DNA of 64,000 nucleotides from Psammoneis japonica. Lineage: Eukaryota. Positions 8,058-40,743 of this stretch are shown here, in pieces. Under the pieces are notes generated by a model, which searched no databases, was not told where the DNA came from, and saw nothing but the letters and a program-made list of their open reading frames with translations. The stretch is from positions 124,001 to 188,000 of the forward strand of contig QPGO01000019.1 in assembly GCA_008632985.1 (NCBI GenBank), read 5' to 3'. Position 1 is the stretch's first letter. Each line of letters begins with the position of its first letter. The position numbers were made by a program, and so were the translations under genes.

Positions 8058-8227
8058 NNNNNNNNNNNNNNNNNNNNNNNNNNNNNNNNNNNNNNNNNNN
8101 NNNNNNNNNNNNNNNNNNNNNNNNNNNNNNNNNNNNNNNNNNNNNNNNNNNNNNNNNNNNNNNNNNNNNNNNNNNNNNNNNNNNNNNNNNNNNNNNNNNN
8201 NNNNNNNNNNNNNNNNNNNNNNNNNNN
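8058..8227. other. Assembly gap (N run) preceded by poly-C
   Basis: Run of n characters. Confidence 0.99.
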
Positions 8228-16990: not shown

Positions 16991-18377
16991 AAAAACCAAA
17001 TGTTGCCAAATGAATGACATGATGCAGCACTGTGCACACACACCTTTGGGATGATTCGTCATTTTGTCACAAGCAATGGTTGCCTGTTCAATGTCCCACA
17101 CACTTCAAAGTGAGCAAGGAGTTCCTTGGACACAGGGCTGATTTACAAACATGGGAGTCACAAGAGATTGCACACCTGTTGTCATGGCAATTGCAGCAAT
17201 TTCATCAGCACACATTTCTCTGCTTTACAGGAAAACAAAAAAGGGCACCCCAAAACAACTCAACTCACCTGTTGCGAAAAATGCAGCCAAAACAAGCAGC
17301 AGTGGTTGTGCCAGAGATTGTGTCAAGTTGTCAAGATTTGCTTCTTGCTGGTGCTTGTTCAACACATCTTTCAACTCTTCCAATGGATTGGTGGTCATGT
17401 GTGGAGCTCTCAGCACCCTCAGCAATGGATGAAGAGGGGGTGGCACCATGAGTGAAAAAGCAAGAAAAGGAGACACAATGGTGAAGTGAGAAACAAGGAT
17501 GAGATTGTTAAAAAATTGTTGCAAGAACACTGTCTTCAGACAGCACCAGTTTCTCAATGAAAATGTCATAAAAAACATGAGGGCAGGGTGGCAACAGCAG
17601 CATTGTCCAAGCCAAATGTCCAAAAGAAAACTGAGCAAAAATGTGGGAGACACATCTGCAAGGGCTGGAGAGGCAAAAAGAGTTTGGAAAGCAGATGCAC
17701 AAGCAAAAGAAGAATGAGCAAGGATGCCAAACAATTTGGCAAAGTTTGGTTAAAAGGGTTGTGGAAATGAACAGACAAACAAGAGAGCACACAAGAAACT
17801 GCGGTCAAGGAGGTGCAAGTGGAGGAAAATGAAAAAACACCAATGACTTTGATGCCCAACCCATGGAACCACAGGCAGATGTTTTTAATTTCTTGTGCTT
17901 GGCAAGGAGCCACATTTGCAAGTGAATGAACCAATTGGCAAGTGCAGGACAAAACAAACAAGCAACAAAGTTGCATCTGGTGCTGGAGTCCAGTGTGGAA
18001 AAAGGTGGCTGTGTGGGCAAGAAGATTTGTGCAGGGGCGCCGCTGGGATGTGAAGGTGCAAAACCTGTGCAGAGCATGCGCAGCACACCAGCACCACTGC
18101 CCGCATCAAATGCAGTGAGACCCAAATTGCGGCCCAGCTGGCGCATCAGAAAATGGGACCCAACCCTGCATGGCCAATGCAGGATGGACCTGCATGGCTC
18201 AGCTGGGCTTGATCCAAATTGTTCCCCCTCAAATGTGTCACCAGCACAAACTTCTTGGCTCTTGGCAATGTCACTGGATCAGACAGCAAGCTCCAACACT
18301 TGTGCAGCACCCTGCTGTGCTGCAGCAGCTGCTGCACAGTGTGCAGAGAAGCCAGCAACCAAGCAAATGGTTGAGCA

Positions 18378-19144
18378 CAGGTGAGACTCCATGTGACATC
18401 AAGCCCACAGAATTCTGCATGCAAGCTCAGAGAACAAGAGTTCACAACAAACAAACAAACAAGTTTGCAGGGCATTTGCACCTGTCCACACTTGAAATTT
18501 TTGAACATCCACCCACCCTGCACAATTCTTGCTGTGAGGTGATTGCAGAACAAAGGGGTGAAGGTGAGATCATTTGATTTTTCAGGATTTCCACCATGCT
18601 TTTAGTTTGTCAAATTTAAGGTTGCACTCAGTCATCAAAGCCCCTGCAAGCAACCTCCATTTGATGGCAAAATGTCGCACCAATGCCGAGCTCAGTTTTT
18701 TGACCATTGTTTGTTTGATGCACTCAATTGCCAAACAATTGAGAGTTTGTCCGGGGGGACTTTCCTTGCACACTCATGTTCACAACAGTGCAATTTCTGA
18801 CAGCACATGAAAAATGTCGTTGTCTTTGTTGGCATGGAGCGGCAATTTGTTGTGCAAATTGCAGTCAACTGCACAGCCACTGTCTGCCCAACATTGCACT
18901 GCTGTGCACAACTTCTGCACATGCCTTGAGAAGTTCAAGAATTGCACAGAAGAAAAAATGTAAAAAGTTGTTGAATGGACAACAGCCCAACAACTGCACT
19001 GCAAAATGATGCAAAAATCCAATGAAGTCATGCAGAAACATGCTTGCGCAACATGAGGCACAATCCAAAAAATGTCAATGTCACAGTTCAGTGGTGCAAG
19101 GTCCCACCCACCTGCTGTTCCAGTGGCTGGAGCTGGAGCATGTC
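18378..19144 (+). mobile_element. Longer degenerate member of the MITE family seen at 45691 and 58953
   Basis: Left end caggtgagactccatgtgacat...cccacagaattc and right end tgtcacagttcagtggtgcaaggtcccacc...ggagctgga match the ends of the other copies. Confidence 0.6.
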
Positions 19145-19206
19145 CACAGTTGCAAAAATTAAGTCACAAGTTGGGCCACAATGTGCGTTGCATTTTCACA
19201 CAACAT

Positions 19207-22200
19207 GCACCTTCAGGTTTGCCAGGCACTGAGTCAAGTGTCCAGATTGCAGATTGCAATTTGACATTTGTCACTGACTCTTGTTTTGGTCATGCTTCAT
19301 TGATTTGTGACCATTTCTCTTGAGTTCTCTTGTCAAACATCAAGCACATTGCTTTGCAACAATTTGAGTTAAGAGTCAAAAGAAGAGTGCTTTGGAGGAC
19401 AAGACTTCTGCAGCTCTTGACATGAAAATGCAATCACATGAACAATGGTTGTTGTGGTTTGGACCAATTGCTCTCATTGTTGACAACAGTTGTGGAGGTT
19501 TTGATCAAGATTGGGTTGCTGCCAAATGCCCTCCCTCCCTTATGAGGATGCAGGAGGGCCCATTGCTCAGAACATTGCCACGGCCATTGCAAGCCTCACA
19601 AATCCTGCTTGGCTTGCTGTTGGTCAATGGAAGTTTGTCATCAACTCTTGGCTTTCCAAACAAGTTGTTGCCTTGTTTGTGTCCTTGTCCACCACCCCAA
19701 AGGAAGAGTCCAAGCAAGATTTCAACCCTCAGGTTGGAAATGGTCCTCAAGTGCCCTCCAGTGTCCAACAAAAAACCTGCAAGGACACTGCTCTGCTCAA
19801 TGATCTGTCAGACCCTTTTGTCCCTCACTCCCACACTCAACCGGATGAGCCATCTGGCAAAGTCTTGGAACAGATTGTCAGATGAATGCAAGGAGACCTT
19901 GATCAGCTTTCCTGCAAGAATTCATCCTGGCACAACCTGCTGTGCCAAGAGATTGAGAAAAACACACACCTGGAGACATGTGTCTCAGATGTTGAATTGG
20001 CCACTCCAAGCTCTGATGCAGATGCCCTCCCCTGGATTGATCATGTCCAAGAAGCTCAAATTTGAGTGGTTGACTCACCAGCTCTGCAAGTTCAAGCAAA
20101 GGGTGAGGATCCTGCTTGTGACCTTCACTCATTGAAGTGCAAAGTGGGTGCTCTTGAGAGTCAAGCATCAGTTGGCTGTGGTGTCTCAGCACATGGAGTC
20201 TCCTTCAATGCCCCCTTGGAGATTGGGTCTTGGCTCTGCCCAACCAAGAACTTGGCAGCTGTGTTCCATGATGCTGTGTCCTTGTCACACTCCATTGGGG
20301 CAATGACTTCCTCTCACAAGAGTGCTCTTGCAATGATGAAAGTGCAGCAAGATGTTAAAATTTCTTGTGACATGGAAGCAAGGGCAATTGCTTCTTTTCA
20401 GACCAGCCTTTCTTGGATTCTCTTTGATGCTTCTGTGGAAGGAGACACAGTGGAAGACTCCCAATGTTTGTCCACCCAGTTGAAGAAGTGCTCTTCAATT
20501 GGCACACTGATGGTGGCATTTTGGGTGTGTCACAACAAATCTCAAGGGGTGCAATTGAAGTCCAAAACTGTGTGACTTTCCATGTGCTCTGGTTGAGTCA
20601 GGGCATGCTCAAAGATTCCTTGAACTTTGTGCGCTGCATTTTTCAGCTCATCAAGTTGGCACAACTTCTGCATCTTTTCTCCCGGTCACTCTTTTCTCCT
20701 GGTCACTGTGGAAGCAAGAAAGAACCTGAGAGAGAGTTTTGTCAGGATGACCCCTTCACACATGGGAAGGGGTCAATCATTGGACATTGCAGTCAGTCAA
20801 GTTGTCTTTTGATGCGGCTTTGCTCAACACATCTCCACTCACCAACATCCCTTGCCCCCTCTGATTGCATCATTTCTCACTGCTCTGCAGGTCTTTGTTG
20901 CCCCATCTGAGATTCATGACATTTTGCTCCCCATGACCTCTCCTCTGCATGGAGTCACTGCATGTCTCACAAGAGGTTCAGGGGGGAAGGTTGCCACCTG
21001 TGTTGCTCCTGTCACACCTGGGCTGCAGACAGAGGAAACAAGCTTCAGTTGAACAGGGTCCATCATCCTGAGCAACCCTCCAACTCCTTTGTAAACCCCA
21101 CAGCCCCTCTGCATTTTGAGGTGGCACAATGTTCTCTTGAAAATGTGCAGCCATGCTGGATGAGCTCATCAAATGCTTCTCATCCTTGGCCTCTTCCAGT
21201 CTCTGATGTGCCTGTCCTTGCTCCGTTGGTGTTTTTAAAAGGAAAGATGACAGCTGGGTTGTCAACATTGGTGGAACAAAGTGGATCCCCCCCCGATTGG
21301 AAATCTTCAACTGGTGGCTTGTGTTTGGACTTGGAACGTTGTGGTGCCACTTTGGACATGCATCAAATTTCTCATGCAGGCATCTTCATGGATCAGTGTG
21401 CAGTTGCCTGCCAAGGGCGACCCTTGCTCTCAGTTCTCTGAGGAAGACAGTCACCCTCGTGACAATTTGAACAATGACCTTGCACATGCCACTCTTCACA
21501 CAAAAACTGACCAGCAAGTGGGAGATGCCACACTGTGTTGTGCATCCCATTTTTGCTGGGTGTGGGAACCAAGCAGTGTGAGCAATGCTTTGGTGGCCAC
21601 TGAGGCAGACAACACTGGAGTGGGCACTTTGTTGTGGGCAGTTGGTGGACATGGCATTGAACTTGAGCATGCTGGAGATGTCATTCAGACATGTTTTCTG
21701 CTTGGTCATTGGAGGAAGCATGTTCTTTGTGACCTTTGATGGTTTTTGGTCCCAGTCTTGTGCACCAACCTTTCCAGTGGAGTTTCAACATGATCCAGAT
21801 GCTGTGTGCAATGTTTTCCCTTGGATTGTTTGAGCATCCTGGCAGGAGTGGTTGGATGGCAGCAGAGTCTTTTGGTGGCAATGGCCATCACTCTGGAGGA
21901 GAAGTGAAGCTCATGATGGGGGGCAGGCATGTTGCACGTCTTTTCCTCCTTGGCAATCCACACCTTGATGGGTTGAACCTGTGAGTGACCCCAAGTGTGA
22001 TCACCTGGTGGCAAAGTTGGGCACTCTGATTCACAGATGACATGTTGCCCCATTCTCTTGTGAGCTTGGTGCTCCACACATGGATTGTGGACTTCCACTT
22101 CCTTCTTTGTGGCACCCAAGGGCAGTGATGACATTTGGGTGGTGTGGAGAGACACTGAAATGGGGTCAATCCTGCCCTTTTCACCCCAAAGTTTTTCATG

Positions 22201-25200
22201 CCTGTCCCAGATGCATTTTTCCAATGATTGCCTCCTGGAGCATGTGTGGGCAACATGGACTGTGATGAGACATTCAACAAGTGGTGCACGCATCCCTTGG
22301 AATGTCAGCATGCTGGTGTCCATCACTTTCCAGACTGGCTGGCCCAACATTTGGGTGCTGTTTCATCCTTCTGTCATTGGGAGCATCTTCTCTTTGGATG
22401 GAGCCCTTCTTCTTCATTGGCCATTTGCATGGCACAGCGAGCCTTGGAGCTCATCAAGGGTGATTGGCATGACATGGTGCATCTCCCACTCCATTTTTCC
22501 AGAGTTCACATGAACTTGCCCATGTCCGCAGGTTGTGATCCAGCCCCACCTTTTCTTGCCAAGTGTCAGCATGGTGGACACATTGCTGCTGATGTTTTTT
22601 TCCTTTCAGATGACAGTTGACCTTTTGGTCCTGATGAGGGGTTGGCTTTGGCTGCAGTTCATGCTGCATCTGCTGGCACTCAATGATGTCTGGGCATTCA
22701 GGACAATGTGCTTCAAAAATGGCACAGCACTGGTCAGCATCCTGGTGCTTGGGCTGGCACTTGTGTTCATGCTGTTCAAAGTCTGGATCAGAAATTTGTC
22801 TCACAAGCAAAATGGGAAAAGTCAAAAGTCTCTCAAGCCTGGATTGTGGGTTTTGTGTTCAAAGATCAACTTTTGCCTCATGTGGAGTTTTGCTCATGTG
22901 GGTTGGTTTTCTTTGTCATGTTGCCTTGACAACCCATGATCACAAGCCACCATGTGTGAAAGGCATTTGCCTTTCCCTCAATTCTTGGCACCCTGATTTC
23001 ACCTGACTGGGAGACAGATGCTGACAAGGACAATCCCCCACTTGTTGATGACCACTTGTTGATGACAAGGGCGATGTTCTCCTGCTTGAGTCTGCCAACC
23101 AACAAAGTGGAGGTGGAGGAACCAGAATGTGTTTCACCCATGCCTTGCCTCAAGTGTGATGTCAGTGCATCATTGTCTTCTTTCAACTTCCTTGCCTTGA
23201 TCATGGTCCTCTTGCACCAGGTTTTGGGTGTTTGCTCCATTGCACATGGTTTTGCAGATGCCTCTGGCATGGATTTTGGTGGCACTCTGTGATCTCCCTC
23301 ATCACATGGAAGCAATCCTCAACAACTTGCACTGGAAGTGGCCCACATGGTTTCTGGTGCACCCAGCTGTTAGAAAAATTGTCCAGCTGCTGCAAATTCT
23401 GCAATTTGGTCAAACACATGAGGCACATGGTGGAAAAGGGAAAGCTGACTGGCAAAGAGGTGTGGACAGCCACAGACAATGGGGTTGCTGAAAATGCTTT
23501 CTGCTCAGGCTCTTCACAAAACCCCAAGCTGTTTGAGCTCATGCTGGAGCTTCAACAGCAGATGGTGGTGCAAGTGGATTCTGTGCTTTGTGTTGTCCAT
23601 GTGGCAGGTCTCTGAATGACAAAGGAAGCAATGGATGGGCTCTCAAGGGGCAATGTGACACCCAAAGCCGTGACAGACTTGTCAAGTGCTCATGCATCTT
23701 TGGGCACCCCCCCCTTGTCCCAGTTCCCTGTGTCACTTTGGCTGCAATCTTGGTTGTGCACTGATTTCCAGGTTGCCACCCCTGAACACTGGCTCCAAGA
23801 GGCACAACAAGCCCTGGAATGTGAGTGCCTCTTGCCTTCCAAGACTTGGGTCTGGGATGTGCCACCTGCTTTGGAGTCACATGCTCTTGAAGAATTGGCT
23901 GGTGCACCACTGAAGGGTCATGATGTGCTCCAACAGGTGTGGGTTTGATCCCATGACTCCTGGAGCCTTCCTGGTTTTGTTGTTTTGTTTGTTCTGTTGA
24001 TTTTCACTTTGTCCTTCCATTGAGATGCCCAGAATGGCCAGAGTGCATGTTTGAACCTCTGATTGTTGGTGTCCATTTCCCTCTTTCTTTTAAAATGTGG
24101 GCCCTTGGAGTGGAAATGAGCCCCATTTTTGGTGGTGTTCACATGCGTGATGTCAAAGGTGTGCAAAACTGATCACACACTGGGGCATGATCATTTGCAG
24201 CAATTTGGGAATGCAGCTCTGTGGATCCAGGACATGCCAGATCACATGGTGTCCAGCACATCATCAGGCACCAACTGCCACAAGTTTCTTGGTGTGGCTT
24301 GCAACCAATCCGGTCACAGCAGGTGAATCCATTGTCAACCCAGAAGATGAAAGGCGATTCTTGGAAGCTTGTCCTGGAGATCATCTGGTTTGTCCCTTTG
24401 TGCTCAACAAATGTTCTTTGTTCTCATTGTTCAAACAGCTCCCAACTGATGATGATGCTCAAGGCAATGCCTTTGCACTGGATCACATGCAACATGCCAA
24501 CTTAGATGCCTTCCAGCTGGAGCAGGGAGCCAGAGACAGTCTCAGCAAATCTCCACTCTTTCAAGAAACAAACTCTTCTTGGCGAGGACTTGGGTTTTTG
24601 CATGTTTGACTTGCTTGGTCCATGTGAGTCTTTTGCAACTGACATGGGTCTTGCACAAATCAAATCTCCCTGGTTGCCACAAGGAGAAACAATTTTTTTG
24701 TCTGCACACAAGGCTTGAGGGATCCACACAAACATGTTTTTTGCTTCAGAAAAGGGCCTTCCAGAGCCTTTGGCAGCTTGGACTGACAAGAAACACGTGG
24801 TTGTTTGGAAGAAACCCAACTGACTCTGTGTGGTGCACTGCATTTGCCAAAGGTCTAGAGCATCATCTGGGCCAACAAGTTGAATGTGACATGGCTGTTT
24901 CCATTGAAGGTCATGACAGAATTTCTGGAGATGGCCAAAGGAGTGAGATGCAGCTGTCACAGAGGAGATTTGGATGATCAGAAAACCACGGCATTGTGGG
25001 CTTGCTGTTTTCTCATTGCATTCTGTCACAATTTGCAAGGATGGGAAGTCATGAAGGCCACTCAAAACAAGTTGAAGCATCAGATTGTTGTGGAAGAACA
25101 AGCAGCATCCAGGAACACTGTTGCTCACCCAGGTGTCTCTTTGTGTGGTTGGCTTGAATGTTGTGGAAATGCTCAAGTGTGATTGTCAGCTCTGCTCATT

Positions 25201-26895
25201 CTGTGCCTGCTGCCTGCTTTGGGTTCAAAGATTGCCATCTTTGCATGGTCAGATTCCCCCTGTTTTGGACTGGTCATTCCAGAGACATGATGGGTCATGC
25301 ATGAATGTGACAGACTTCAATGACATCTTCTTCAGACATTTGTTGAGAGTGCAGTCACTGCATTCACACATTGTCTTGGAGAACATGGATGAATTAGAAG
25401 CACGTGGATTGGCAAGGTCCTTGTGATGGGGTGCTGCTGCACGGGCTCAGAATGCAGAGGTTCTTGAACCAGACGTCAACTGGGTTGATCATTGGGGCAC
25501 TGGCATGGAGTTTGTGGTTGAGGGTCCAATGCAAGTGGCACATTCCAAGTGCCCACAGAAGTTGGAATCATTTTTAAGATTTTTCCAGGTGCTGCAATCT
25601 TTGAGGTTCTGCTTTGGTGCTTGAGTGGACAGGTGCCAAGCAGGAGCAGTGGATGCCATCCAAGCAGTTGCTGGCTCTTGGTTGGGAATGGGTGGGTTCA
25701 AATTGTTGAACAAAAGTGGGGGCTGTGATGCCACAGATGCAAGAAGGGTGTCATGGCCAGCGGTTTGTGTTTGGACCTGGTTGGTTGCATCTCAGGCTGT
25801 TGAGCAACTCCGTTGCTCTTTCTTGCTGTTGCATTGGCTGGAGCAACAGATGCTCATGATTGGCAGTCATGTGGCATGGCCCAGCTTCTGTTTGAATTGC
25901 AAGCTCCTGATTTTGATGCGTCTGCACAAATGAACCTGAAGGGGCTTCCAGTGTTGCTGGGGGCCAAATTTCTGACCAGGGTTTGTCAACCATCAGAGGG
26001 CTGCACCGCCATTGTCAAATGGAAGTGTCAGCATGTGTTCAAATGTCCAGTGGTCTGAGATTTAGAAATGAGACAAAGATCTAATCTGTGCCTTCAGGTT
26101 CACCAGACACTGAGTCCAGTGTCCAGATCATGGGTTGTGATTGGACATTTGTCGCCGACTCTTGTTTTGTTGGTCACACTTCATCAACTTGTGACCATTT
26201 CTCTCAAGCTCTCTTGTCAAACATGAAGCACATCACTTTGCAACAATTTGAGTCTAGAATGGAAAGGAGAGCACTTTTGAGAATGTGACTTCTGCGGCTC
26301 TTGACATGTGCAAACACAATCGTGTGAACAATGTTTGCAGTGGTTCAGATTGATTGCTTGCGCTGTTGACAACAGCTGTGGAGGTTTGGATCAAAATTTT
26401 TGTTCAGTGATTGTCTTGCTTCTTGTTGCCAAAACACTTGCATGCTCTCCTTCCTTTTCACTCTGACATCGTCTCATGAAAAGTTGTGCCTTTGAAACTT
26501 CGGCCATTTTTTCTTTCACTCCCACCCACCTGGTTGTGAGTCCATGGATGAAAGGGTGTCCTGGCCAGTGGCTCACACACACTTGACCTCGTTGGTTGCA
26601 TCTCAAGCTGTTTGGCAATTCTGTTGCTCTTTCTTGCCATTGCATTGGCTGGAGCAACAGGTGCTTGTGACTGGCAGTCATGCGGCATGGGCCCGGCTTC
26701 CGTTTGAATCGCGAGCTCCTGATTTTGACACGTGCCCACACAACCAAATCCAAAGGGGGTTCTGGACTTGCTGGGGGCCAAATTTCTGGCCAGGGTTTGT
26801 CAGGCTCACACCACCATTGTTCAGCAGAAGTGTCAGTGTGCATTGAAATGTCAGCGGTCTGACATTTGCAGCAGAAATGAAACGAGGAACCAGAA
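19207..26895 (+). mobile_element. Ngaro/PAT-like tyrosine-recombinase retrotransposon (DIRS order), degenerate, with split direct repeats A1-ORFs-B1-A2-B2
   Basis: A1 ~19207-19508 matches A2 ~26088-26394. B1 ~25740-26080 matches B2 ~26545-26895. RT motifs SFFVAPKGSDDIW, IAADVFFLSDD and LGIQD...PGAWAG. RNase H motifs GFADASGMDFG, TDNGVAE and HVAG...DGLSRG. YR-region motifs GDHLVCPF...HANLDAF and RSL.WGA..A. Confidence 0.75.
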
Positions 26896-27224
26896 CAGAC
26901 ATCAAAAATAAAAGGGACATTTCCCCGCAAACGACATGTGAACAAAAGGTCTAACTTGTCTGTCCTGCTGCAGGACGCAACAGCCAGTTCAGCAATGAAA
27001 CATGTAAAAAGAAAAGATCAGTGCGGTGTTGCGGGCAATGAAGGGCAACAAGGTGCATGGGAGTGACATTTGTTTCTCCTTTTTAAACGTGTTTTGCTGT
27101 GCAGCACTCTTGGCAAACATTCGTCAGCTTCTTGATTTTTGGCGTTTAGCGTTGCAATTGTTGCAGTGCACGAGACTTTCATTGACCACTCAGTGGTTGG
27201 TGATTGCAGACTTTTTCGTGTCGG

Positions 27225-27278
27225 TCCGGCAGTCGGGGGGTCGGGCAGTCGGGCAGTCGGGGGGTCGGGCAGTCGGGT
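27225..27278 (+). repeat. GGCAGTCG/GGGGGTCG 8-bp tandem repeat
   Basis: ggcagtcggggggtcgggcagtcgggcagtcggggggtcgggcagtcggg read directly. Confidence 0.8.
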
Positions 27279-27959
27279 TGTCCGTCTGAATTTGAAAGTG
27301 TGTCCCTCGGATTTTGGAACGGGATGGGTTGTTTGGTGCAGATGAATTCTTCGGATTCATGGAATGATCATTGAAGACATGAGAGGTCGTGGGGACATCC
27401 TAAAAAATTGATAAATTCCCTGCGACGGGTGCGTGGCACGGTTTTTCAGGAGAGCTCGAAAGTCATCAAAAATTGGGATTGCCAGCGTGGCATGTTGAAA
27501 AATGCACTCAGATGCAAACAAAGACAATTTGTCGTGAATTCTACACGAAACAGTCACATTTGGGAAAACATGTCGAACAACAAGTGAGTTTGTGCGATGC
27601 GCTGTTATGGCGATAAATTGGAAAAAAAAAAGAGTGTCCGTGCACCTCGCTGCAGCCCCAAAAATGGCATGAGACATCAAATGTGACGGTCATCCGCGTC
27701 ACCGGTGCGGTGGCCACACCACTCAGCCGCCACAATGCCGGCCCCGGCGGTGGGGCCCTGCGCACGTGCAGGCAATGCAGCATGCAACGGCACACACCCA
27801 CACCCACAAAGAAAGACAAGTGGTCAATGCTCCCCGCAGGCCTGGTCTTTCGGCGAATTGCGGCATTTGAGTCCCACTTTGTTTGGAGAGATCTCTCAAT
27901 CTCGGCAAGTCTCATAAAGCCAATCGAACATTGACTGACTGGGATGTTCATTCGCAACA

Positions 27960-30485
27960 ATGTTTGCCAGCAGAGCAGTTCTTCTCCTGCTCGCTGCAGC
28001 TTTTGCTCCGCAGAGGAGCGAAGCCCAACAGGTGCAGACGGATGAATCGAGCTCACTTTGTTTTGGAGTGCTTTGTTCTTGCTTCCTTTTTGATTTCTAA
28101 CTGGATTTTTCCAAATGAATCCATTGCACAAAGGCAGCAGATGACTGCGCTCTGGAAGAACTTCTTTTTCTTGGCAATCTCCAGCGGGAACTTGGCACCG
28201 ACATGGGCATCCCGGGAATCGTGGAAAATGCCGTGTGCATGAATGATGCTGCCATGGAACCTGGGCTTGCATGCACCTCCCAAGCTGTCGATCTAGCATC
28301 GGCTCTCCCACCCACAAATGTTGCGGGCTGCATCATGGAAGGAGATGATGTCAGTTTCCTTTTGCACTTCCAGCTCAACACAAATTCAGGTCAACGCTTC
28401 GACGTTGGCATTTGGTTTTCAGAAATGGGTGCAAGCGCCCAAACAGGCGAATGCACTGTGGTGAATCTTCCATGGGGGCAGGCACCAACTTACATTGGCT
28501 TGGATGTGACGAGCAACCCTTTTCCAGGAGGCAGCGGAAGTGCCCCTCCATTCAACATACAAGATGCGTGCGGAGACCTTGACAAAAGTGCTCAGACATT
28601 CCCTGTCTTGCTGACCATCCCCTTGACGGTGAAATGCGTCGATCTAGTTGGCAATGATCGAATGTTAGATGCACCGCACTGCACCAGCTGGAGGACTTCA
28701 GGAATGACTGAGAATGCCCCATGCACATCTCCTCTTGAAACTTTTCCTCTTGAAAAAAGCATGTGCAAATGCAACGTGTTAATGCTCCCCATCATGGTGC
28801 CAGGCACGCCGAGTCCCACGCCATCCCCTGCCCCGAGTCCGACGCCATCTCCAACTCCAGCTCCTGCCCTGAGTCCAACGCCATCTCCAACCCCTGCTCC
28901 TGCGCCCAGTCCGACGCCATCTCCAACTCCAGCTCCTGCTCCGAGTCCGATGCCGTCCCCCACACCAGCGCCAATGCCGTCTCCAACCCCTGCTCCTGCT
29001 CCAAGCCCGATGCCGTCTCCAACGCCTGCTCCTGCTCCGAGTCCGACGCCGTCCCCTGCACCAGCGCCAACACCGTCACCCACTGTGCGGAAGGGTGCTT
29101 GCTGCCCTCTAGCTGGATCCAACAGGGTTTGCTTCAAGGGAGCTGAAGAAGAATGTCTTTCAAATTACGGACTCTGGCAAGGGAACAGCGTGACGTGCAA
29201 GGACGTAGATTGTCCGACATCACCTCCTGCAAGCTCTCCTGCCGAAAGCCCCACCATGGCTCCAACTGACCCGGCTCCGACAGCAGCTCCAACGACCCCT
29301 GCTCCTGCCAGAGCTCCCACACTGCCACCGATGAAAGTTGATCAGAGTCCAGGAGCATGCTGCACCTTGTTTGATGGATGCAAGTTTCTTTCTCAGGAAA
29401 CGTGCGCTTTGGGTGGTGGTGCATTTACAAAACCAAACCAAAAGTGCAAGGACACTGAATGCCCCAACAAGGGAGCTTGCTGCTTGGAGGATGGATGCAG
29501 CAAAACTTTCAAGAAGGAGTGCACCAACCAAGGAGGCAAGTTCAAGGGATTTGGCATGCCGTGTGAACCTGGTTTGTGCCCGACCAAACCACCAACTCCG
29601 GCTCCTGGCACCGCAGCACCTACGCAGAAACCCACCGTTGCTCCTCCTCCGACTGGAGCATGCTGTGATGTTGAGGATGATAAATGTGAGCAAACCACAG
29701 AAGAAGATTGTGACACGGGAGCATTCTTGGGGCTTGGAGTCAAGTGCAAGCCGGGTGTTTGTCCCACAAGGACTTCTCCAGGAGCCTGCTGCCTCAAATC
29801 TGGAGAATGCCGTTTCTGGTCTCAACGGACATGCGCTGCAAATGGAAACTTCTTCTTGGGTCCTGGTGCTTCCTGCAAGAATGTGGTGTGCCCAGGCAAG
29901 ACTCCAAGCCCTGCCCCTGCTCCGGTCAAGAAACCGATTGGAGCCTGCTGTTTTGAAAGTGGTCTTTGCCGCAACCTCATGCCTGCCGTGTGCAGGAAGA
30001 AGCATGGCAAGTTCATCGGTGAAGGTGCCATGTGTGCGAAGGACAACCGCTGTCCGGTTGGACAATGCGGCAAGCCCGGTGCGTGTTGTCTTGTGAAGAA
30101 AAGGCAGTGCAGGACTCTCCCTGAGAAGAAGTGCAAAAAGAAGGGTGGACATTTTGGTGGTGAAGGTGCCAAGTGTAGCATGAAAACGTGCCCTGCCGCA
30201 CATGGTGCCTGTTGCTTGCCAAATGGAAATTGTGCTGTGTTGAAGAAGACTGCTTGCGTCAAGAAGAAGCAGGGAAAGTTTGTCGGATTTGGCACCAAGT
30301 GTAAGAAGAAAACCTGCGCCTCCAAACCCGGTGCCTGTTGCTGGAAGAATGGCAAGTGCATGATGTTCAAACAGTCCAAGTGCCACACGCGTGGAGGAAA
30401 ATTCGTGGGAGCCGGTGTCAAGTGCGGCAAGAACACATGCCCCAAGAGCCCTGATCACAAATGGTTTGTGTTGAGTGTGAGATGA
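27960..30485 (+). pseudogene. Copy 2 of the secreted GACC-repeat gene. ORF open but TpA/CpG-hypermutated. Exons 27960-28031 and 28134-30485
   Basis: Collinear with 3862-6606, including upstream sequence and intron. Numerous TA->TG/CA and CG->TG/CA changes. Intron donor gtacgg->gtgcag. Stop TAG->TGG with read-through WFVLSVR. Expression is unknown. Confidence 0.8.
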
Positions 30486-32230
30486 TGTACACATCTTTTG
30501 TCATTTGCTTGCAATGCAATGAGCAACTCATTTTATCTTCATCCATTCAACCAATTGTGCCTTTGTTCTTGCATTGAGAAACATTCTGTTGCTTGCAGTC
30601 CTCAACATCAGATGGTGGGGGCAGTGGATGCAGAGGGAAAATGTCAGAGACGTGCGACACCGCTGATGAAACCAAGCCCGGTTCATGCAGAGCATGTCTT
30701 TTAACGCAGCGGTCTAGTTGCTGCACACATTTGACTTTGACAAAAAGCCTCCCATCCTGCTGCCAGGTTTTTGAGCTGTCTCCAAACTGTCTGTTCAATT
30801 GCTGCAAGAACAAAGACTGTCAAAAATGTGGCAAATCAAGACATGAAAGCAAGGAGCTTCTTGCTTGCTTGTCCCAGTTTCACTGCCAATGACAAGTCTG
30901 ACTTCAGCCACACGAGAGTGGCAAATCCAGCATTGAGCAACCATTGCTCCAAAAACAAAGTGCTCAGGTGTCACAATGTTCCAAACAAGAACATCTCAAC
31001 TGAGGACTGGAACGCTGAAACAACGGCCACAATGGAACGAGGTGCCAACTCTTTGCTGAAGGCAGTGGTGCCATGCTCTTCAGGAAAAGAGACTCTGTTC
31101 TTTTCAAGAAATTTTGCAGCAATTGATGCTCTGTTGCCCAACCCAAATGACCCAGATTCAGACTTGCAAGAAGAAGAGGTGCTGCTTCACAACAAGGGCA
31201 CTTGTTCTTTTCTGACTGACGTGGCTCTCAAGAGTCATTTTGCAACTCCAGCACAACTCCAATCAATGGACATCCATGGTCAGGGCATTGTCGGCAATTA
31301 AATCAAGATTGCACTCACAGAACTTGGCTGTGCAAAACAATGCTGTTGATTGTGCCTTGCAAAAGTTTTGCATGAAATCTCTTGCATCATTGCAGGCCAC
31401 AGGCACCAGGCACCAGGCACCAAACTGGGCGACAAGGGAAAAAATGCTCGCCATTTCCAAAGTGCCCTTTTTCTTGACTGTCAAAGTGTTTGACACACAC
31501 TTTGGTCTTCAACACAAAGTTGTTTGCCTGAACAACACTGTGGTGGATTTGTCCCAAATGTCATTGATGATGCTTGGCTTTGCGTCAGGAAGCTGAGTGG
31601 GACCCAAAAGCTCTGTGACATGTGACTTGTGCCACAACTCATGATGTCCAATTGTCCACCCTCAATGAAGTTCACACAACAACCAATGGATGTGCAGGAC
31701 ATCAAGCACCAGTGCTCTCTTGTTGTGAAACCTTTTAAATCTCTTGCACAAGAGCTCCCACTGTGGGAGACAGCACAGTGCCGTCAATGGCATCCAGCAA
31801 TGCACCGCCATTGGAGCTGTCAAGTGCGCCTGTTTGGACGCTGTCAGATGCCCCTTTGGAAGCCCCAGGTGTGGAGGACAGCACAGCAGCATGCTGTCAG
31901 AAACTCCAATTCATCCACCAATTTCATGGCTCCATCTGCATTGCCCCTCTGTTGTGACAATCCTTGATGCGCTGCTCAGTTGTTGTGGCCCACAACTCAG
32001 AATCTTCTGCAGAAAACCCTGAAAGTCAAACCAACAAAAATCATGAGTGATCCATTTTTTGCTTTTTGGAAGTTTTGCAGAGGAGTCTGCACCCACAGCA
32101 ACATGCCAGCAATTGCAGCCTCGCTGACAATGAACAAATTGCAATGACAAGAAAAACAAAGCACGCTTTTTGATGGTGCTTTCTCCGACATTCAATCTTG
32201 GTGTTGGCACATTGGCCAGTGCTTCAACAC

Positions 32231-32399
32231 TCACAGACTGCCAGCATTGGGACAATCCAGCAGACATCTGGGACAGATGACAATCGCGCACTGGATGAGA
32301 AAAAAAGGGAGCAAAAGAGAGATCATCGGATCTCTCCATGCTGTCTGTGCCAGTCTGTCTGACACAAGGGAGTGCACTCCCCATCTCGGATGTCTGCCA
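32231..32399 (-). repeat. 3' LTR of Copia element
   Basis: Direct repeat of 39153-39321, adjacent to the polypurine tract. Confidence 0.9.
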
Positions 32400-35300
32400 C
32401 CCTCCCCTGATGAGCAATGCAATGCTCATCAAGAAAGAAAGAGATGATCCAAATAAAAAAGAGGATCAGAACAGCAGAACAAAAAAGAGGACCAGAAAAG
32501 AAAACTCACCAAAGACTTGATCCGCAAACACGATGACAATCAACGGCAGTGTTCCATCAAATGGCGGGCATGGCGGGAGTGAAGCATCCAACCCACAGCC
32601 TTGGTTAGTGCGTCAGCAGGGTCAATGACACCCGGAATGTGTCAAGTGACAATTTTGCCTGTGTCACACCAGTCTTGGATTGCAAAATGTTGAACATCAA
32701 TGTGGTGGGATTGCCCCGCAGGCACCTTGTCATCGACCATCTGGATGGCAGAGGAGCCGTCAATGTGCGAGGGAGCAGGATCTTGTTGGGAAAAACCCAG
32801 CTCTTCAAGGACCACACAGAGGCACAGAGTTTGCTTTGCACCAATGACAGCTGCAAGAAATTCAGCTTCTGTGGAGCTGGTGGCCGCAGTTGTCTGCGCA
32901 CGGCAACAGCAATCAGCTGCAGCACCAGCAAGGACATGTGCACACCCGGCAGCAGACCGCCGATGCCAAAGTTCATTGGCATGTGCTGCATCAACAAAGC
33001 CAAGAAGTTGGAAAAGACCATCAGCACAAGGAAAGTCAGGAAGGGATGGATCATCCTCAAGCCACTCAAAGGCACGAGGAGGTGAACCTGGATCCCGCTT
33101 GGTCTTCTCATGCGTCAACCCCCAATGCTTGGTGTGGCACAAATGCTTGGCCATGCGCTTGAGAGACCCACAATGAATTTCAGCCAGAGCCTTGGAGAAC
33201 TTGGACAAGGTGACAACAGGAAGACCGACATCCAAGCAGCAACACGAACAAGCAAAGACCAGCTCACCCAAGACAGAATGACAAGAGAAAAGCCCTGGGA
33301 TTCAGAGAGAGTGCCACACTCGGGAGCACCTTTTCTGCTGGACCTTCAGCAGCACACAAATCTGCAATGCAATCAACCGGCACAGGCGCAGCCTTGAAAT
33401 CAGTGTCACATTCGCAGCAGGAGCATCCCATCCATGAGTCTTGAAGACACGATCGAGGCAACTTGCAACATTGATCGCAATCAAGTCATCATTCTGGATG
33501 ACATCAATGCCACTGAATTCAGCAACCAAACCCAAATGCTTGACTGGGGGGGTGTCTTGATTCTCCATCTGGAGGGCCTTTCCAATGTGGTCACAGATCT
33601 CTTTTGCAATCTTCTCCAAGGGACAAGCAAGTGCAAAATCATCAACTTGACAGAGCAATTGGACCTTGACACCATCATGTTCACCAGAGCAGATGCACTT
33701 GTCATGAGCAGCATTTTGGAAGAGAAGTTTTGCACCCAAGAGAGTCGAATTTATGTGCTTTTCCCACAGGACACCAGCTTCAGGATGGCCTTGGAGGGCA
33801 TGCTTGAGCAAAAGAATGCAATGGCGGGGCACTTTCTTGCCAAAATGACTTTCATGCCACATGCAGCACATGCATCATCAACAGCAACAAACACTGGTTG
33901 TGAAGGTGTTCCACACAAGACGAATGCGTGGAGGTCAGTTTGTGCAATGCTGGCACAGCCGACTTGGATTCATCTCCACATTGTCCAGAATGACATTGTC
34001 CATCTGGCTTTGCCATGCAATCCCAATGTGGACACATGACATTTGCTCCAGGGGGACGCGGTTGTGGAGGACCATGCGTGCCAAGTGCACAAAATTGGCC
34101 CAGTTGATGCTTCTCTCCTTCCTCCCATTCCGGCCATGTGTCAAGTTCATGGAGCTTGGCACGGGTGAGATGGTCAAGGGCAGCTTCTTCCGGAGTGAGA
34201 GCACAGGAACCAATTGCATGAAGATGGGCACAAAAGACATCCATTGGAATGGCCTCATCAGAGAAATCATCTTTGGGGTGGAGAAGAGCTGCAATGGATC
34301 AGACATCCTCCAAGGTGAGCTCGAGCACATGGGAGTCATCTTCCATTGAGTCTGGATCAAACAACTCCACTTCCTCAAATGCTTTGTTAAGAGTTCGGGA
34401 GTCCAGATGTCTTTCCGGTGCAAAATCAATCTCAAAAGTTGGAATCTCATCACGAAAGACCCACAACAGTGTGTCTTCAGCATCTTGTGGTGCAAAGACT
34501 TCCTGCTTGTTGACAGAGACAATGCATGCACCCATGAGCTTTTTTCAAGCAGCGCAAAGGGATGAGAGTGATGAGGCCGCAGGATTGCGCTGCTTGATTT
34601 CTGAGATGCAGACATGATCTTAAAGCACACTGGGAGAAGCCAAATCTGCAGGTGGGGTCCTTGGGAGGACATTTCATGGTGCAAGCAACAGTCTTGGCAA
34701 ATGGGTTTGATGAAGAAGCAAACTCAGGGACAGTTGTGCCCTGTGTTTCAGCCGGAAAAGGCTGACCATTTTCCACATGTTGCAAATGGGTGGCATTGGG
34801 AGGAAGTTGATCCAAAAACAGGTCATTCACACCCTCATCACACCGCACATGCTTGACTGTCTTGACCTTGTCAATCTCAGGATCCCACCAAAGAACATTC
34901 TTCAAGGTGTTTGGGAGACACCCAAGGAATGCGCATTTCTTCAAATTTGTCCAGAACGTTGCAAATGGGTGGCATTTGGAGGAAGTTGACCCAAAAACAG
35001 GTCATTGGCACCCTCATCACAACACACATGCTTGGCCATCTTGACCTTGTCAGTCTCAGGATCCCACCAAAGAACATTCTTCAAGGTGTTCGGGAGACAC
35101 CCAAGGAATGCGCATTTCTTCAAATTTGTCCAGAACGTGGCAGAACAAACAGCAGATCATCTGGCGACACTCGACATCCAAAAGTCTTCAAAGCAGCAAA
35201 ATTCTTGATCTTTCCAGTGACAAGGGCAATGGGGGATGCATCTTGATCTTTTGCAGGAGTGGCATTCTTGACACGGAGGTGATGGCAAAAAGCACAAGGC

Positions 35301-38300
35301 CAGAATCTGATTGGGAGGTTGGCAATGATTAAAATCGCACAAATCGGGTTCTCGACATTCAAACATGATGAGCGTTCAACAGGGCCACATTGGTTGGATG
35401 CACCAGTGCCAGAAGGACACATGTCATGCTGGAATTCTTGTTCAAAGAGGTCACAAACTTTGGGGCTCTTGTGCAATTCCCCACCTTGATCCAAGGTTGC
35501 ATGTTTGTCATGACAATTTGGCGAGTGTCGATCCAAGAATTGGCAAATCCACTTGAGAGGACTGGCTCAAGAGACCCGCGCAACACCATGAAGCGTGTGT
35601 GTTTTATGATCATGGACAGTGATCCAACACGTTTCACCATCACAACCAAGACAGTCAGACTTGCAGTCTTCATTCTTGGAAGCCTGACCAGCAAAAGCAA
35701 AATCCACAGCAAGGCCTTGTGTTGGGTCCAGCGGGCATCTTGACTTGCTTTGCCTGAATGCACGTGGGACAAGCACCAAGGACCGGGTTGGCATGCCTGA
35801 ACTTGGGGACTCCTTTGATGTGCTTGTGAGCGTTGCACAAGCAATGATTGCTGGGATGTCCAAGGCAGTGGTGCCATGGGAGATGTTCAGTCTCAACTTT
35901 GAGAGAGCGGGCCAGAGCATGAGTGGGCAACTGTGGCAATGTGTGTGCAACAGAATTGCGTTTCATTGAAAACAACTCAGCATCCATCATTGGGGGGTCA
36001 GATGGAGTTTGTTGAACATTGACACAGAAGACAGCACGTTGGCATGCACCGTCAATGTCACCAACCAATGTCGGGTCAGGTGCTGAGTGTGCTGTGCAGA
36101 CATCAGTCTTGGACGGGGAATCAGAGGCTGTGCAAAGACCTTTCCATGCCAGAGGATGCCATGGACAACTGCCTCTTTGGTGTCAGTCAAAGCAGCACAT
36201 TGGCACAGGTCTTCTCAAGAAGCTCGGAGCGAATGACCTGAGGTTTAAAACCAGAAGCCCACGCAAAATCACGTTCATCAATCAAGGTGGAATGCAGGCT
36301 TGGATGGCAAAAGGTGTGCACAAGAAGAAAGCAGTCAGCATTCTCTGCGGGTGCTTGTAAATGACCAAAGCCATGAGGAGCCATGTCAGAGCTTTCAGCA
36401 GCAGAGAGCATCTTCAAAGGACAGGGATTGTCCGGTCCAAATGGGGTGCAAGCATGGAGAAGGTTCCATTCTCCTGCACAGAACACCCAAGCACCAGCAT
36501 CAATCTGTGCACGGTGTGACATTGAATCATGGAGCACATGATTGAAAGGGACAATGGGAGTGTTCAATGATTCAAAAGTTGCAGGTGATTTTGGTGGATA
36601 AAAAATCAGAGAGACACACACTGCACTCAATGGCAACAAGTGCTGGCTGGCAGTCATGTTGAGGTGCTCAAAGTCTTGATCTTGGTCAGTGGACAGAGGG
36701 TCATCAAAATCTTGTGCAGGAGGTTCATGAAGAATGGGTTCCCTCCCCTGATTAATGTCATCAGGGTCATCATCCGGAATTGTCTTGACATCCGGAGTGC
36801 TGGCCTTCATCGGATCCAAAAGAAGGTTTGCAAATGACACACATGAAAGAGGTGGTTCAGCGGAAGGCAACGAGTTGGTTAGACCCTCTTTTGCAGTTGC
36901 CCCACTTGCAGGAGTTGATTTTGGATTGGAGAGAGATGGGTGGCATTGTTTGTCCGAACGCAACAATGGCCCCAGGAAAAATCCTTCTTGGGCTTCTCAG
37001 ACTTGAGTGCATCTCAAGCATGCTGATCGCATTGAAGGAATTGGAAGAACCAGATCAGGTGAGTGTGCAAGCACTCAGCATTGTTCAACACTGGGCACTC
37101 ATGAAACAAGTGACCATCGCCACAGACAACACATGGGCAAGTCTGTGCAGCAGCAGGTGATGACTCAATCCTGCAGATGCAAGCCTTGCAAACACCATGC
37201 AGTGCTTGTGCTTCATCATCCAGAGGGATTTCCACAGCAGCAAGTTCATTTGCAAAATGCTCCATGACATCCACAGGTTCTTCCGCAGGAGGAGAATTGG
37301 TTTCTGTTGGAGTCTCTTCTTCAACAACTGGAGGTGGAATCAGACGATTCGTCTTCAGGCAGCAAGTCCAGACCTCGAACAGGAGCTGCAAGAGAAGGGT
37401 TTGCCGGGGGACAAGGAATCTGATTATGGAGACAATGTGGAGGACACTTGGGAGGGTCCTTGACACACAGATCAGGGCTGTCCGGTTCCTTGAGTGTCAC
37501 ACTGATGGTCTTGACAATCTTCTTCTGGGCAAACTTGTGTTGCTTGTTCTTGTCTTCCCAAGCATTCACTGTTTTGCAGTGTGGATGCTCTCCATGCCGG
37601 GCATTGCCAAGAAAAATGTCCAGCTCACCAGGATCATCAAGGGATGCATCAACATTGGAGATGATTGCCTGCAGTTGAAGGCAGTCTCGGAAAAGAGCAC
37701 AGCAACTAAGAATTGTGAGGTTGTTTTGGTGGGGGCAGCTCTTGATTAATTCACACGGACGCTTCATCCAAATTGGCAGGACATCAAAGAGGATCATCTT
37801 GAGGGCAGCATGTCCATCTCCATGGCACTGACAAACAATGTCAGGATGCTTGGAGTTGGCTGGAAAGATTCCAACCTTCTGAATGCACTGGAAGACAGTC
37901 AACTTCATCCGGTCAAGTGGTGCTCGCATCCGAAGTGGCAGGTCATCTGCAGGATCATTGCCACTCGTGAAGCCCCAATTTCTGCCATCCTTGATAAAAC
38001 ACCAGAGGGGGTGCATGCACGTGCCACAAGCCGAGGCTTGTTGGGTTGCTGCAGTGTGCCATGCACGGATTCCTTGAGGAGAGATGTTGTCACAAGCAAG
38101 AGGGTCGTGAAGAAAAGACTTGGCATCCCAGTCAGTGCAACAGACAAAGAGAGAACCATCAGCAAGCATGAGATGCTCTGCACCATCTTCACAGTGAAGA
38201 TTTCCAGACTTGCAGGGCACCAGTGACTTCCCTGACACCACTTTCCCGGCTTCCTTGTGTTGACAGCAAGCTGGTGCAACCTTTGGAAGTCCTTTTGGGT

Positions 38301-39152
38301 CAAAGGTGCACACAGCACTGGCGGCAGTTGAGGAAGAAGCCACAGTGGTGGCAGTCATGGCAGAAGGTGCAGAAGATGGTGCAGGAGGGGTGACCAGGCA
38401 AATGAGTGGCCAAGGCCTCGGCAAAGTCTTCAGGAGCAGCACCTGCAGTGGGAGCCGGTGGAGGTGCAGAGCTTGAGGTTTGAGATGACTTTGAATGTGG
38501 AACATTGGACACATCGTCCCAACATGCAAAAGATGGAAAAAGGAACACAGTCTCAACACAGAACGTCATGGTGTCATGGCCATCTGAAATTGCTTTGATC
38601 ACAGCCTTCTGAAGATTGGCGAGGTTTGGACAAATCAGAGAAGCTTCAGGAGTGGCCACAAAGAGAGGAGCTTCATCCACAATCAGACCAATCTGTGTGA
38701 GATCTTCAGTCAGTGCAGCCTTGGGGGTGATGAGGTCTTGAACAATCTTGTGACAGAGAGCAGCAACAGCATCACTCTTGAGGCCTTGAGGAGTGAATCC
38801 ATCCAGAATTTCTTCAGGAGCAGGCATCTTGTTAGAATGAAGGACGTTCAGGCAATGATGGGCATCAGGCAAGTGATGCTGAGGGTTAAATTCAACCAGT
38901 GTCGACTTGATCTTGGTCAAATCGACAGCATTTGGGGTTTTGTTCTTGCCATCATTGTGCGAAAAAAAATCAAATTCCCATGCCAAGCTCTGGTGTGTGT
39001 TCTACGGTGGTCGTTTGATCACAAATCAAGAGGTGAAAAAACAGCTGCAACAATGATGATGATTTCAACAAAGAAAAATCACCAAACCACACAGCGGGCG
39101 TTGCAGCGGATCGGCACAGAGGAAGACAAACGGCACACTGCTGCTCATGACC

Positions 39153-39321
39153 TTGCAGACTGCTGGCATCAGGACAATCCAACAGATGTCTGGGACAGAT
39201 GACAATCGTGTGCTAGATGAGAAAGAAAGTGGGCAAAAGAGAGATCATCGGATCTCTCCGTGCTGTCTGTGCTGGTCTGTCTGACACAAGGGAGTGCACT
39301 CCCCATCTCGGATGTCTGTCA
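39153..39321 (-). repeat. 5' LTR of Copia element
   Basis: Direct repeat of 32231-32399, followed on the minus strand by a PBS-like sequence and gag. Confidence 0.9.
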
Positions 39322-39860
39322 AACACTGGCGCGTGGTTTTCAGAAACAGGTTCGAGCACCCAAACAGGAGAGTCTGCACTGTGGTGGACCATTGGCACCA
39401 TGCACAAGAATGACAATGCATGTCCAATTGAGCTTTGCAGCATGCCCAGCGAATCATGCTGCTCAGTTGAAAAAAGGCGGTGCAGAGCTCTTGAGGAGAA
39501 GAAGCGCATCAAGAAGGGCGGGCATTTTGCTGGCAAAGGTGTCAAGCACAGCAAGAAATTGTGCCCGGCCACCTGTGGTGCACACTGCTTGCCCAAAAGA
39601 TCATGTGCCATGTTGAAGAAAAACACTCATGCAAAGAAGAAGCACACGGAATTTTTTTTTTTAATTTGGCAAAAGAGCAAGTGCAAGAAGAAGTCTTGCA
39701 CCTCCCTGGGCCTGGGTGCCTGTTGCTGTTCCGGAAGAATGGCAACAAGCATGCACAATGTTGAAAGGCTGCAAGTGCTGCAAACACAGAGGAGCATTTG
39801 TTGGAGCTGGCATCAAGTGCCACAAAAAGCCTGCCCCAAGATCTCTGATCCCAAGCAGCC
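39322..39860 (+). pseudogene. Copy 3 (fragmentary) of the GACC-repeat gene, split by the Copia insertion
   Basis: Joining 32214-32230 to 39327 gives GQCFNTGAWFSETG (copy 1: [14 protein letters not shown]). It then jumps to IGTMHKNDNACPI...KKGGHFAGKG...CPATCGAHCLP...GACC...GAGIKC.KKPAP. Confidence 0.75.
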
Positions 39861-40743
39861 ACACCCCAATTGAGAGGTGCAGAGAAGACCTTTTGAAGAA
39901 AATTCTCAGGTTGGCTTTGTTGAGATTGTTTGTCATGTGCGCACAATTTTGCCAAGTCAGTCAACAACAGCGCATGGCAAAAAATTGAGCTGCATGATTG
40001 GCTCTTCACAAGCTGCACTTTTTGCCATGAAGATTGGAAAATGGGGTGAGTGAGTGCATGCCATTTGTGTGTTGTTGTGCTCACAGCAACAAAAGAAACA
40101 AAAGCAATTGCTGCACTCATTTCAAAGGCAGGGCGTTCAAAACTCACAATGCTGCTCTGGCCATTGCTCATTTTTCCAGCTTTCCTTTCTTGTTTGTCAA
40201 CCCTCTTGTGATGACCACATTGTGCCAGCTTCAGTTTGCATCTGTGAGAAAAGTGCCCAGGGGATCCTTGGCTTGTGACACGGTGCTGTAACAACAGACC
40301 CCATTGCATTGACTCATGTGTAGCTGGACTGCAGATCGAAAGAATTTAGTTCAAAAGATGTGACAGTCATGGTCATAGGACAACATGAAAATTTCTCTCC
40401 TGTAACGAAAAGTTTAACGCTTTTCTCTTTGCTTCTTCTACTATTTTTCCTTATGTATATTTCGAGTAATCTGTCTCTCTGACATGGTGAATGCCAGTAT
40501 CGCCCATCATTCACATTCGACTATTTATATGTGAATGAAAATTTGGGTGGATAACACAGTCTTTGTTTTAGATGTCCGGTATTCAATTTTATATTCAGAT
40601 CGCAAGATGTATCAAGGTCTTTTTTCGGCCCCACAAGTCATTCAAAATGCCATTTTCTTGTCGGAACAGGTTACGCAACTTACGCACACGCACAACAAAT
40701 ACCGATAAAACACTTCTTTCTCCGCACTTACGCAGTGTTCACA

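Follow-up and report, generated by a model that had tools for sequence, protein, structure and literature searches.

The genome of the diatom Psammoneis japonica contains blocks of mobile elements in which TpA dinucleotides have been changed to TpG or CpA on both strands of genomic DNA, after the elements had been inserted. We describe this process starting from a 64-kb window (positions 124001-188000 of contig QPGO01000019.1 in the 91.4-Mb assembly GCA_008632985.1; G000 and C16 in our labelling), in which a Copia-type long terminal repeat (LTR) retrotransposon occupies positions 32231-39321 on the minus strand. The 7091 nt of this element have only 20 TA left, an observed-to-expected ratio (o/e) of 0.04, with a CG o/e of 0.32. 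Tiles of 1 kb over genes in the window have a TA o/e of about 0.5-0.76, and the element sits in a block of about 33 kb (approximately 7001..40200) that ranges from 0.00 to 0.15 per kb and also holds a copy of a host gene. We are highly confident in the pattern reported here, that is, in its polarity, its action on both strands, its timing after insertion, its specificity for TpA, its preference for a 3' pyrimidine, its restriction to blocks, and its uncoupling from CpG loss.

The two 169-bp LTRs, both read on the minus strand (3' LTR, 32231..32399, with no TA and four CG remaining; 5' LTR, 39153..39321, with one TA and four CG), are bordered by the target-site duplication (TSD) AACAC at 32226..32230 and 39322..39326, and align over 169 columns without gaps. 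Nineteen of their 20 mismatches are transitions, and 12 of the 20 fall in six sites at which one LTR reads CA and the other TG (32232, 32242, 32248, 32265, 32289 and 32351). At position 32292, one LTR reads TG and the other a surviving TA; seven more mismatches are of other kinds. When 20 transitions were placed randomly, none of 200,000 trials yielded six reciprocal sites, the maximum being five. The reciprocal CA/TG pattern is thereby confirmed as real, and with it the statement of an earlier note on this DNA that the LTRs differ mainly in this manner.

The ancestral state of these sites was examined in 46 distinct LTR copies of the family (scoring covered 40 of 132 candidates; 30 sequences were then retrieved, and further ones came from the retrieved elements), a sample biased toward copies that resemble the left LTR of the window. 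TA and CG are never both present at one site, and the classes split cleanly into TA with CA and TG, or CG with CA and TG: the TA-class and the CG-class comprise eight sites each, and at three further sites CA and TG stand without any TA and with one CG at most. Among the reciprocal sites, 32232..32233 (CA/TG) keeps TA in 15 of 46 copies and 32351..32352 (CA/TG) in six of 46, in both cases with no CG; the TA-class also includes 32292..32293 (TA in 24 of 46). Two reciprocal sites are CG-class, namely 32242..32243 (CA/TG, CG in 26 of 45) and 32248..32249 (TG/CA, CG in 23 of 46), neither with any TA. The last two, 32265..32266 (CA/TG; 17 CA and 29 TG of 46) and 32289..32290 (CA/TG; 22 CA and 21 TG of 46), have survivors of neither kind. 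As CG-class sites retain CG in 33-80% of the copies, its absence from all 46 would be improbable for a true CG site. Moreover, at codon positions 1-2 of the coding region, 11 of the 18 sites that have only CA and TG align with a Tyr of outside proteins and one with an Arg; of the 47 CG-class sites, 25 align with Arg and one with Tyr. This comparison used 32 of 39 homologues, the Tyr-poor ones being left out. Given these correspondences and the retention of CG, 32265 and 32289 were probably TA in the ancestor. No unedited family member was found among the 30 best-scoring reverse-transcriptase (RT) loci (88 matches; 81 scored of 1054 candidates), all of which have a TA o/e of 0.01-0.18, and TA at 32245, 32265 and 32289 consequently remains a state that we infer. 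The check proposed in the earlier note thus has a mixed outcome, with an ancestral TA at two of the six reciprocal sites, CG at two others and probably TA at the remaining two.

The direction of the change can be read from proteins and from a duplicated host gene. At positions that are Tyr in two outside copia proteins, the 30 RT loci and the window copy have Cys in 37-42%, His in 29-34% and Tyr in 4% of cases, while Trp is retained in 90%; of 39 such positions, the window copy itself reads Cys at 14, His at 13 and Tyr at none. The host gene encodes a Pro/Thr- and Cys-rich repeat protein without a Pfam match; it has 36 matches in the genome and three copies in the window (4021-6606, 28119-30485 and 39389-39999). 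Copy A (3813..6610, plus strand) is TA-intact and served as internal reference for copy B (27911..30468, plus strand), which lies in the TA-stripped block. Of the 65 TA sites of copy A, 47 have become TG or CA in copy B, which retains 14; other paralogues retain 23-25 of 32 TA of copy A, which makes copy B the derived one. Hence, the direction of mutation is TA to TG or CA. At the 112 CG sites of copy A, 35 changes are found in copy B, so that TA loss exceeds CG loss (p=3.5e-8) and CG decay is about 3.7 times slower per site (hazard 0.40 vs 1.47).

Ordinary decay of 5-methylcytosine (5mC) at CpG also leaves reciprocal CA/TG differences on both strands, as would be expected from DNMT5-type 5mC on diatom transposons (PMC9998398), and the earlier note had named it, as the origin of all reciprocal sites, as the outcome that would overturn its reading. 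Two of the six sites are indeed CG-class, many C5-methylase matches occur in the genome, and DNMT5a-dependent CG methylation of transposons is shown for P. tricornutum in the same paper. It is nevertheless very improbable that CpG decay produced every site: 32232, 32292 and 32351 have TA survivors and no CG, Tyr has turned into Cys or His in the RT loci, and TA is more depleted than CG in both the element and the gene copy. As sole cause CpG decay is refuted; it is a minor contributor, with 28 of 115 LTR mismatches in the pairs discussed below. Two processes thus overlap, one specific to TpA and, at a slower pace, ordinary CpG decay.

For the timing of TA loss we used ten elements whose TSDs match exactly (seven) or with one mismatch (three); the dating and independence counts exclude four of 14 LTR pairs that lack a matching TSD. 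At sites changed in both LTRs, the two states agree in 40 of 64 cases within elements and in 329 of 538 between unrelated ones (p=0.42). Over 99 sites the outcomes are 675 CA, 611 TG and 73 TA; each copy holds TG and CA in about equal amounts, interleaved along its sequence. In gene copy B, 18 of 46 neighbouring outcomes are alike, and run tests found no long one-strand tracts. One TSD among the 14 LTR pairs is itself altered (TTAAG/TCAAG). Since the outcomes in paired LTRs are independent, fall on both strands and extend to a TSD, the parent copies still had TA, and its loss followed in the chromosome. TA loss is therefore a post-insertion event on both strands of genomic DNA, as the earlier note had proposed, and editing of RNA or cDNA is excluded as its main cause, which leaves a deaminase acting on integrated DNA as the leading mechanism.

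An A>G change after U is the 5' context typical of ADAR-type enzymes, and it is this likeness that speaks for editing of the RNA or cDNA intermediate by ADAR or APOBEC before insertion. TAG, a triplet favoured by ADAR, is however disfavoured here, the balance and interleaving of TG and CA within each copy and the independence of paired LTRs point the other way, and both a TSD and a host-gene copy are affected as well. We consider this route scarcely credible, even though the ADAR-like context is also argued for in a preprint on a related phenomenon (bioRxiv 10.64898/2026.01.13.699255). It is largely refuted, as neither a one-strand bias, nor a sharing of outcomes between LTRs, nor a restriction to transcript limits was found.

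The same process distorts the apparent age of the elements. In the ten TSD-matched pairs, the raw LTR divergence is 115 of 1689 positions (6.8%), with 74 of the mismatches at TA-class or survivor-less sites, 28 at CG sites and 13 elsewhere. Outside those classes the divergence is 0.99% (13 of 1310); the resulting inflation of about sevenfold is approximate, since the same copies served to define the site classes. For the LTR pair of the window, 11.8% raw compares with 5.3% outside those classes, an inflation of about twofold, so that the suspicion that LTR ages are overestimated in this family was justified, though the effect is smaller for the very pair that raised it.

The sequence preference of the process is narrow. 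In the gene copy, A>G changes affect 48 of 130 A (37%) after T, compared with 5/310 after A, 12/352 after C and 6/272 after G (1.6-3.4%). Across 346 1-kb tiles, a non-random set chosen around elements and genes, the survival of TA relative to intact DNA is 0.015 when both strands read TA-pyrimidine, 0.088 when one does and 0.313 when neither does. The preferred motif is accordingly TA followed by a pyrimidine. The motif was not derived from the context table of the element's internal sites, which is skewed toward balanced ones. From the gene copy, the TpA rate can be estimated indirectly as raised by a factor of at least about 35, or several hundredfold if an LTR background of 0.5-1% is used.

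Metagenome contigs contain 35 related loci, about 65% identical to the copies of this genome; a flanking gene shares 81% identity with the corresponding P. japonica protein, and their host is probably a diatom. Of 25 copies that pass a filter of 82% identity, 21 are distinct, and in these the edited fraction by 3' base amounts to 0.53 for C, 0.47 for T, 0.29 for G and 0.20 for A, and the effect of the 5' base is small. These copies keep TA at 0.00-0.85 and CG at 0.44-0.75, and the two do not correlate (rho -0.15, p=0.52), which shows the process in a second species and uncouples it from CpG decay.

These data also bear on an error-prone polymerase of the DNA polymerase eta (Pol eta) type that would place G opposite T when it copies silenced DNA in the course of repair, such as that of deaminated 5mC. 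On either strand, Pol eta gives A>G changes in WA motifs, and the stripped blocks have lost CpG as well. The AA motif is however cold, with 5/310 after A set against 48/130 after T for the gene copy and 2.5% for the AA columns in the element. Among the 21 metagenome copies, the extent of TA loss does not follow that of CG loss, and transversions stay near 1%; a polymerase origin therefore strikes us as unlikely.

The TA o/e of the 346 tiles is below 0.15 in 233, above 0.4 in 83 and between these values in 30, and the borders of the stripped blocks are sharp to within a few hundred bases. TA-restricted transitions are confined to blocks of mobile elements and spare the genes; the median CG o/e is 0.46 in stripped blocks vs 0.94. 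Most of 19 loci of the gene family keep their TA, and the stripped ones (L091, L099, L100 and part of L101) have TA-poor surroundings. The tandem pair L097/L098, 97.6% identical over 1607 nt, keeps its TA (o/e 0.5), although these duplicates could be too young to have been affected. An intact tandem pair, and a copy A that is intact while copy B is stripped, show that homology alone is not the trigger. Position predicts TA loss better than the possession of a similar copy does, with chromatin state probably behind it, and we regard it as likely that targeting follows chromatin state or position and not copy-to-copy homology.

Repeat-induced point mutation (RIP) of ascomycetes likewise destroys transposons through dinucleotide-specific transitions in genomic DNA and distorts the divergence of repeats, but it makes TA from CA. 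The diatom process shares the dinucleotide-specific attack on transposons and has the opposite polarity; nor does the trigger of RIP, long similar duplicates of which both copies are altered, agree with the intact L097/L098 pair or with the unequal fates of copies A and B. A chromodomain open reading frame (ORF) lies directly upstream of a C5-methylase match at L118 (G000:C34:42155-45664), an arrangement like that of the diatom DNMT4 proteins, which may be related to RID, the methylase-like protein on which RIP depends at the sexual stage (PMC9998398 for the DNMT4 proteins), and which would be an argument for RIP. Against a fungal-type polarity (CA>TA, TG>TA) stand the loss of TA in place of a gain and nine CA or TG sites that are identical in all 46 LTR copies. 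The C>T change at CpA with gain of TpA was not found, and RIP polarity is refuted. GC-biased conversion and selection were likewise rejected by reasoning, as neither would be TpA-specific in dead copies.

An artefact of assembly or base-calling draws some support from a single public read set that departs from the assembly at a few TA- or CG-type sites. Its contigs nevertheless reproduce the stripped sequence, the left LTR included to about 32284 (the run may be the assembly's own source), and independent metagenome contigs show the same pattern. One contig of 1233 nt covers 31083-32315 with six differences, of which none of those listed falls at 32232-32265 and two unlisted ones may lie at the contig ends. 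The differences at 32122, 32174-32175, 36038 and 37757 comprise CpG-type sites and one reciprocal TG/CA (32174), show no second allele in the run, and may reflect a different isolate or recent mutation. Taken together, RIP-type polarity and artefact are exceedingly improbable as explanations.

The observations lend themselves to a model in which a host process would mutate TpA to TpG, or to CpA when the same event falls on the other strand, in silenced, transposon-rich blocks of the genome. Mutation would set in after insertion of an element, each site would be resolved independently until nearly none is left, and a slower CpG decay would run in parallel. The lesion would be an adenine deaminated to hypoxanthine by a TadA/ADAT2-type enzyme and read as G at replication; the likely effect would be dead transposons, as Tyr codons turn into Cys or His and TAA and TAG stops are lost. 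An enzyme of this type would account for A>G changes with a strict 5' T and a preferred 3' pyrimidine. TAC is described as the preferred motif of ABE7.10, an engineered adenine base editor, and of its parent TadA, which acts on tRNA, and both cause A>G changes as found here (PMC8065034). We lean, with reservation, toward adenine deamination by such an enzyme on silenced DNA as the lesion, and are moderately confident that the model as a whole is the best explanation.

The genome encodes TadA-like, ADAT2-like, dCMP-type and RibD-type deaminases and two further ones, whose link to the process is putative; a search with the A_deamin profile gave four matches at two loci. At L085:313-1785 (G000:C79), a TadA-like deaminase is fused to a 2OG-Fe(II) oxygenase; full-length relatives of this fusion are widespread, the named ones occurring in diatoms, and nothing ties it to TpA loss.

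Several points weigh against this model or parts of it. The deaminases of this genome resemble those of ordinary housekeeping, and a Pfam scan of four fragments revealed no chromatin-reader domain. TA followed by T is altered in only 2 of 11 cases in the gene copy, unlike the TAT preference elsewhere, and two of the six reciprocal sites that started this analysis are plain CpG decay. Neighbouring outcomes covary weakly (p=0.014-0.018), a signal that may stem from shared ancestry and that we do not trust. Agreement at TA-class sites is higher within than between elements (64/109 vs 668/1417, p=0.007, 14 pairs); this excess vanishes once only changed states are compared and, in our reading, reflects shared TA survival in elements of like exposure. 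Finally, TA is palindromic, so that a lesion on A and one on T cannot be told apart from the sequence. A thymine that is modified or oxidised at TpA in silent chromatin and pairs with G, giving T>C, would by this symmetry have the same outcome, with the context readable as purine-T*-A, and other protists are known to modify thymine in their repeats. The motif instead fits the known preference of TadA; a search of the genome for TET/JBP gave no matches and is uninformative, as it lacked a positive control. We regard a thymine lesion as improbable, if slightly less so than the polymerase, and retain adenine deamination as the favoured lesion.

The element itself has the hallmarks of copia, with direct LTRs, a TSD and an integrase region upstream of an RVT_2-type RT. 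Its matches to RVT_2 and gag_pre-integrase are both under the Pfam cut-offs. On the minus strand, a polypurine-tract-like run adjoins the 3' LTR (32400..32408, read from the sequence), a fragment of RT from a broken copia pol lies at 33302..33874, with conserved Tyr positions turned into Cys or His, and a GAG-pre-integrase fragment lies at 35670..36182; a tandem duplication of 2 x 179 nt (94%) spans 34779..35136. The RT fragment has 203 relatives at E<=0.001, the named ones being diatom copia proteins, and is 45-49% identical to proteins of Nitzschia inconspicua and Cylindrotheca fusiformis. For a host protein, too, the nearest named relatives come from diatoms (Attheya, Cyclostephanos and Seminavis). 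Gag-pre-integrase followed by RT and a 5-bp TSD agree with diatom copia elements; the TA-stripped state of all 30 examined RT copies and the apparently non-canonical LTR ends set this family apart. These ends (32231-32233 and 39153-39155) seem to be AA on the sense strand and not the usual CA, as judged from copies that keep a terminal TA. Beside the 5' LTR, the primer-binding region, which we take to resemble the anticodon loop of initiator tRNA, reads CA at 39148-39149 in 14 listed copies, TG in seven and TA in none.

Elsewhere in the window, a direct-repeat pair about 6.9 kb apart (19202-19512 and 26083-26398; 64 mismatches, 15 reciprocal CA/TG sites) probably represents the LTRs of another element, an inverted repeat pair of 213 nt (45874-46086 and 58954-59166) has 21 mismatches and four reciprocal CA/TG sites, and a Tyr-poor ORF without a Pfam match in a TA-poor block at the window end (62681-63688) is probably another decayed element. 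On two stripped contigs (G000:C297 and C301), blocks that have lost TA but largely kept CG (o/e about 0.7) contain several C5-methylase copies (L166-L175) close to ORFs for endonuclease and RT; these methylases are possibly borne by mobile elements. When the contigs were considered as viral inserts, 24 of their ORFs gave matches to methylase, endonuclease and RT families and none to a viral Pfam family, a dedicated search for viral genes not having been made. Five copia proteins from other public assemblies (P0051, P0057, P0084, P0067 and P0007), with 0.5-1.6% Tyr and 3.4-5.0% Cys, hint that the same process may operate in further genomes.

Our literature search, which left subscription papers mostly outside its scope, found no diatom report of TpA erasure. 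The nearest counterpart is the chlorarachniophyte Bigelowiella natans. According to a preprint (bioRxiv 10.64898/2026.01.13.699255), TpA>TpG/CpA hypermutation of integrated nucleocytoplasmic large DNA virus (NCLDV) and virophage DNA was measured there in two virus regions, at a rate about 1000-fold above background; it is active now, is switched on in some lines only, and was attributed without proof to an ADAT2-type deaminase. TpA-poor coding sequences of B. natans are enriched in reverse-transcriptase and DDE domains. Both systems share the TpA>TpG/CpA change on both strands of nuclear DNA, its confinement to regions, and its uneven occurrence between lines or copies. They differ in host, here a diatom and thus a stramenopile; in target, an LTR retrotransposon family and a host-gene copy as opposed to integrated viruses; and in saturation, with a TA o/e of 0.04 as opposed to 0.45 in the virus region. 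The rate was measured directly in B. natans and estimated indirectly here, whereas in the diatom LTR pairs fix the timing and the 3' pyrimidine preference was measured. The terms 'diatom', 'LTR' and 'context' are absent from the main text of the preprint, whose supplements, with 230 TpA mutations in Table S2, may hold the 3' context. To judge from the features that can be compared at the sequence level, the diatom process appears to work like that of B. natans, with a shared enzyme as a putative further likeness.

Collectively, our findings extend a signature known from one preprint to diatoms, to LTR retrotransposons and to a host-gene copy, carried near to completion after insertion and with a measured motif. 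LTR pairs and gene copies give a clean reading of timing and sequence preference, and thereby reduce the range of candidate enzymes. In such genomes, ages taken from LTRs are biased, so that transposons seem older than they truly are, and the loss of TAA and TAG stops leaves long, Tyr-free open frames that can be mistaken for genes. That diatoms carry a chromatin-guided DNA adenine deaminase as a genome defence, one that would erase TpA, and TA-pyrimidine best of all, from new insertions and from whatever else lies in silenced blocks, without depending on CpG decay or on homology pairing, is a proposition that we hold to be evenly poised. Should a deaminase be responsible, nature would have a DNA adenine editor of its own, and the system that targets it would merit a search; together with B. 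natans, it would point to a natural A-to-G DNA editing system common to distant lineages of the stramenopiles, alveolates and Rhizaria (SAR).

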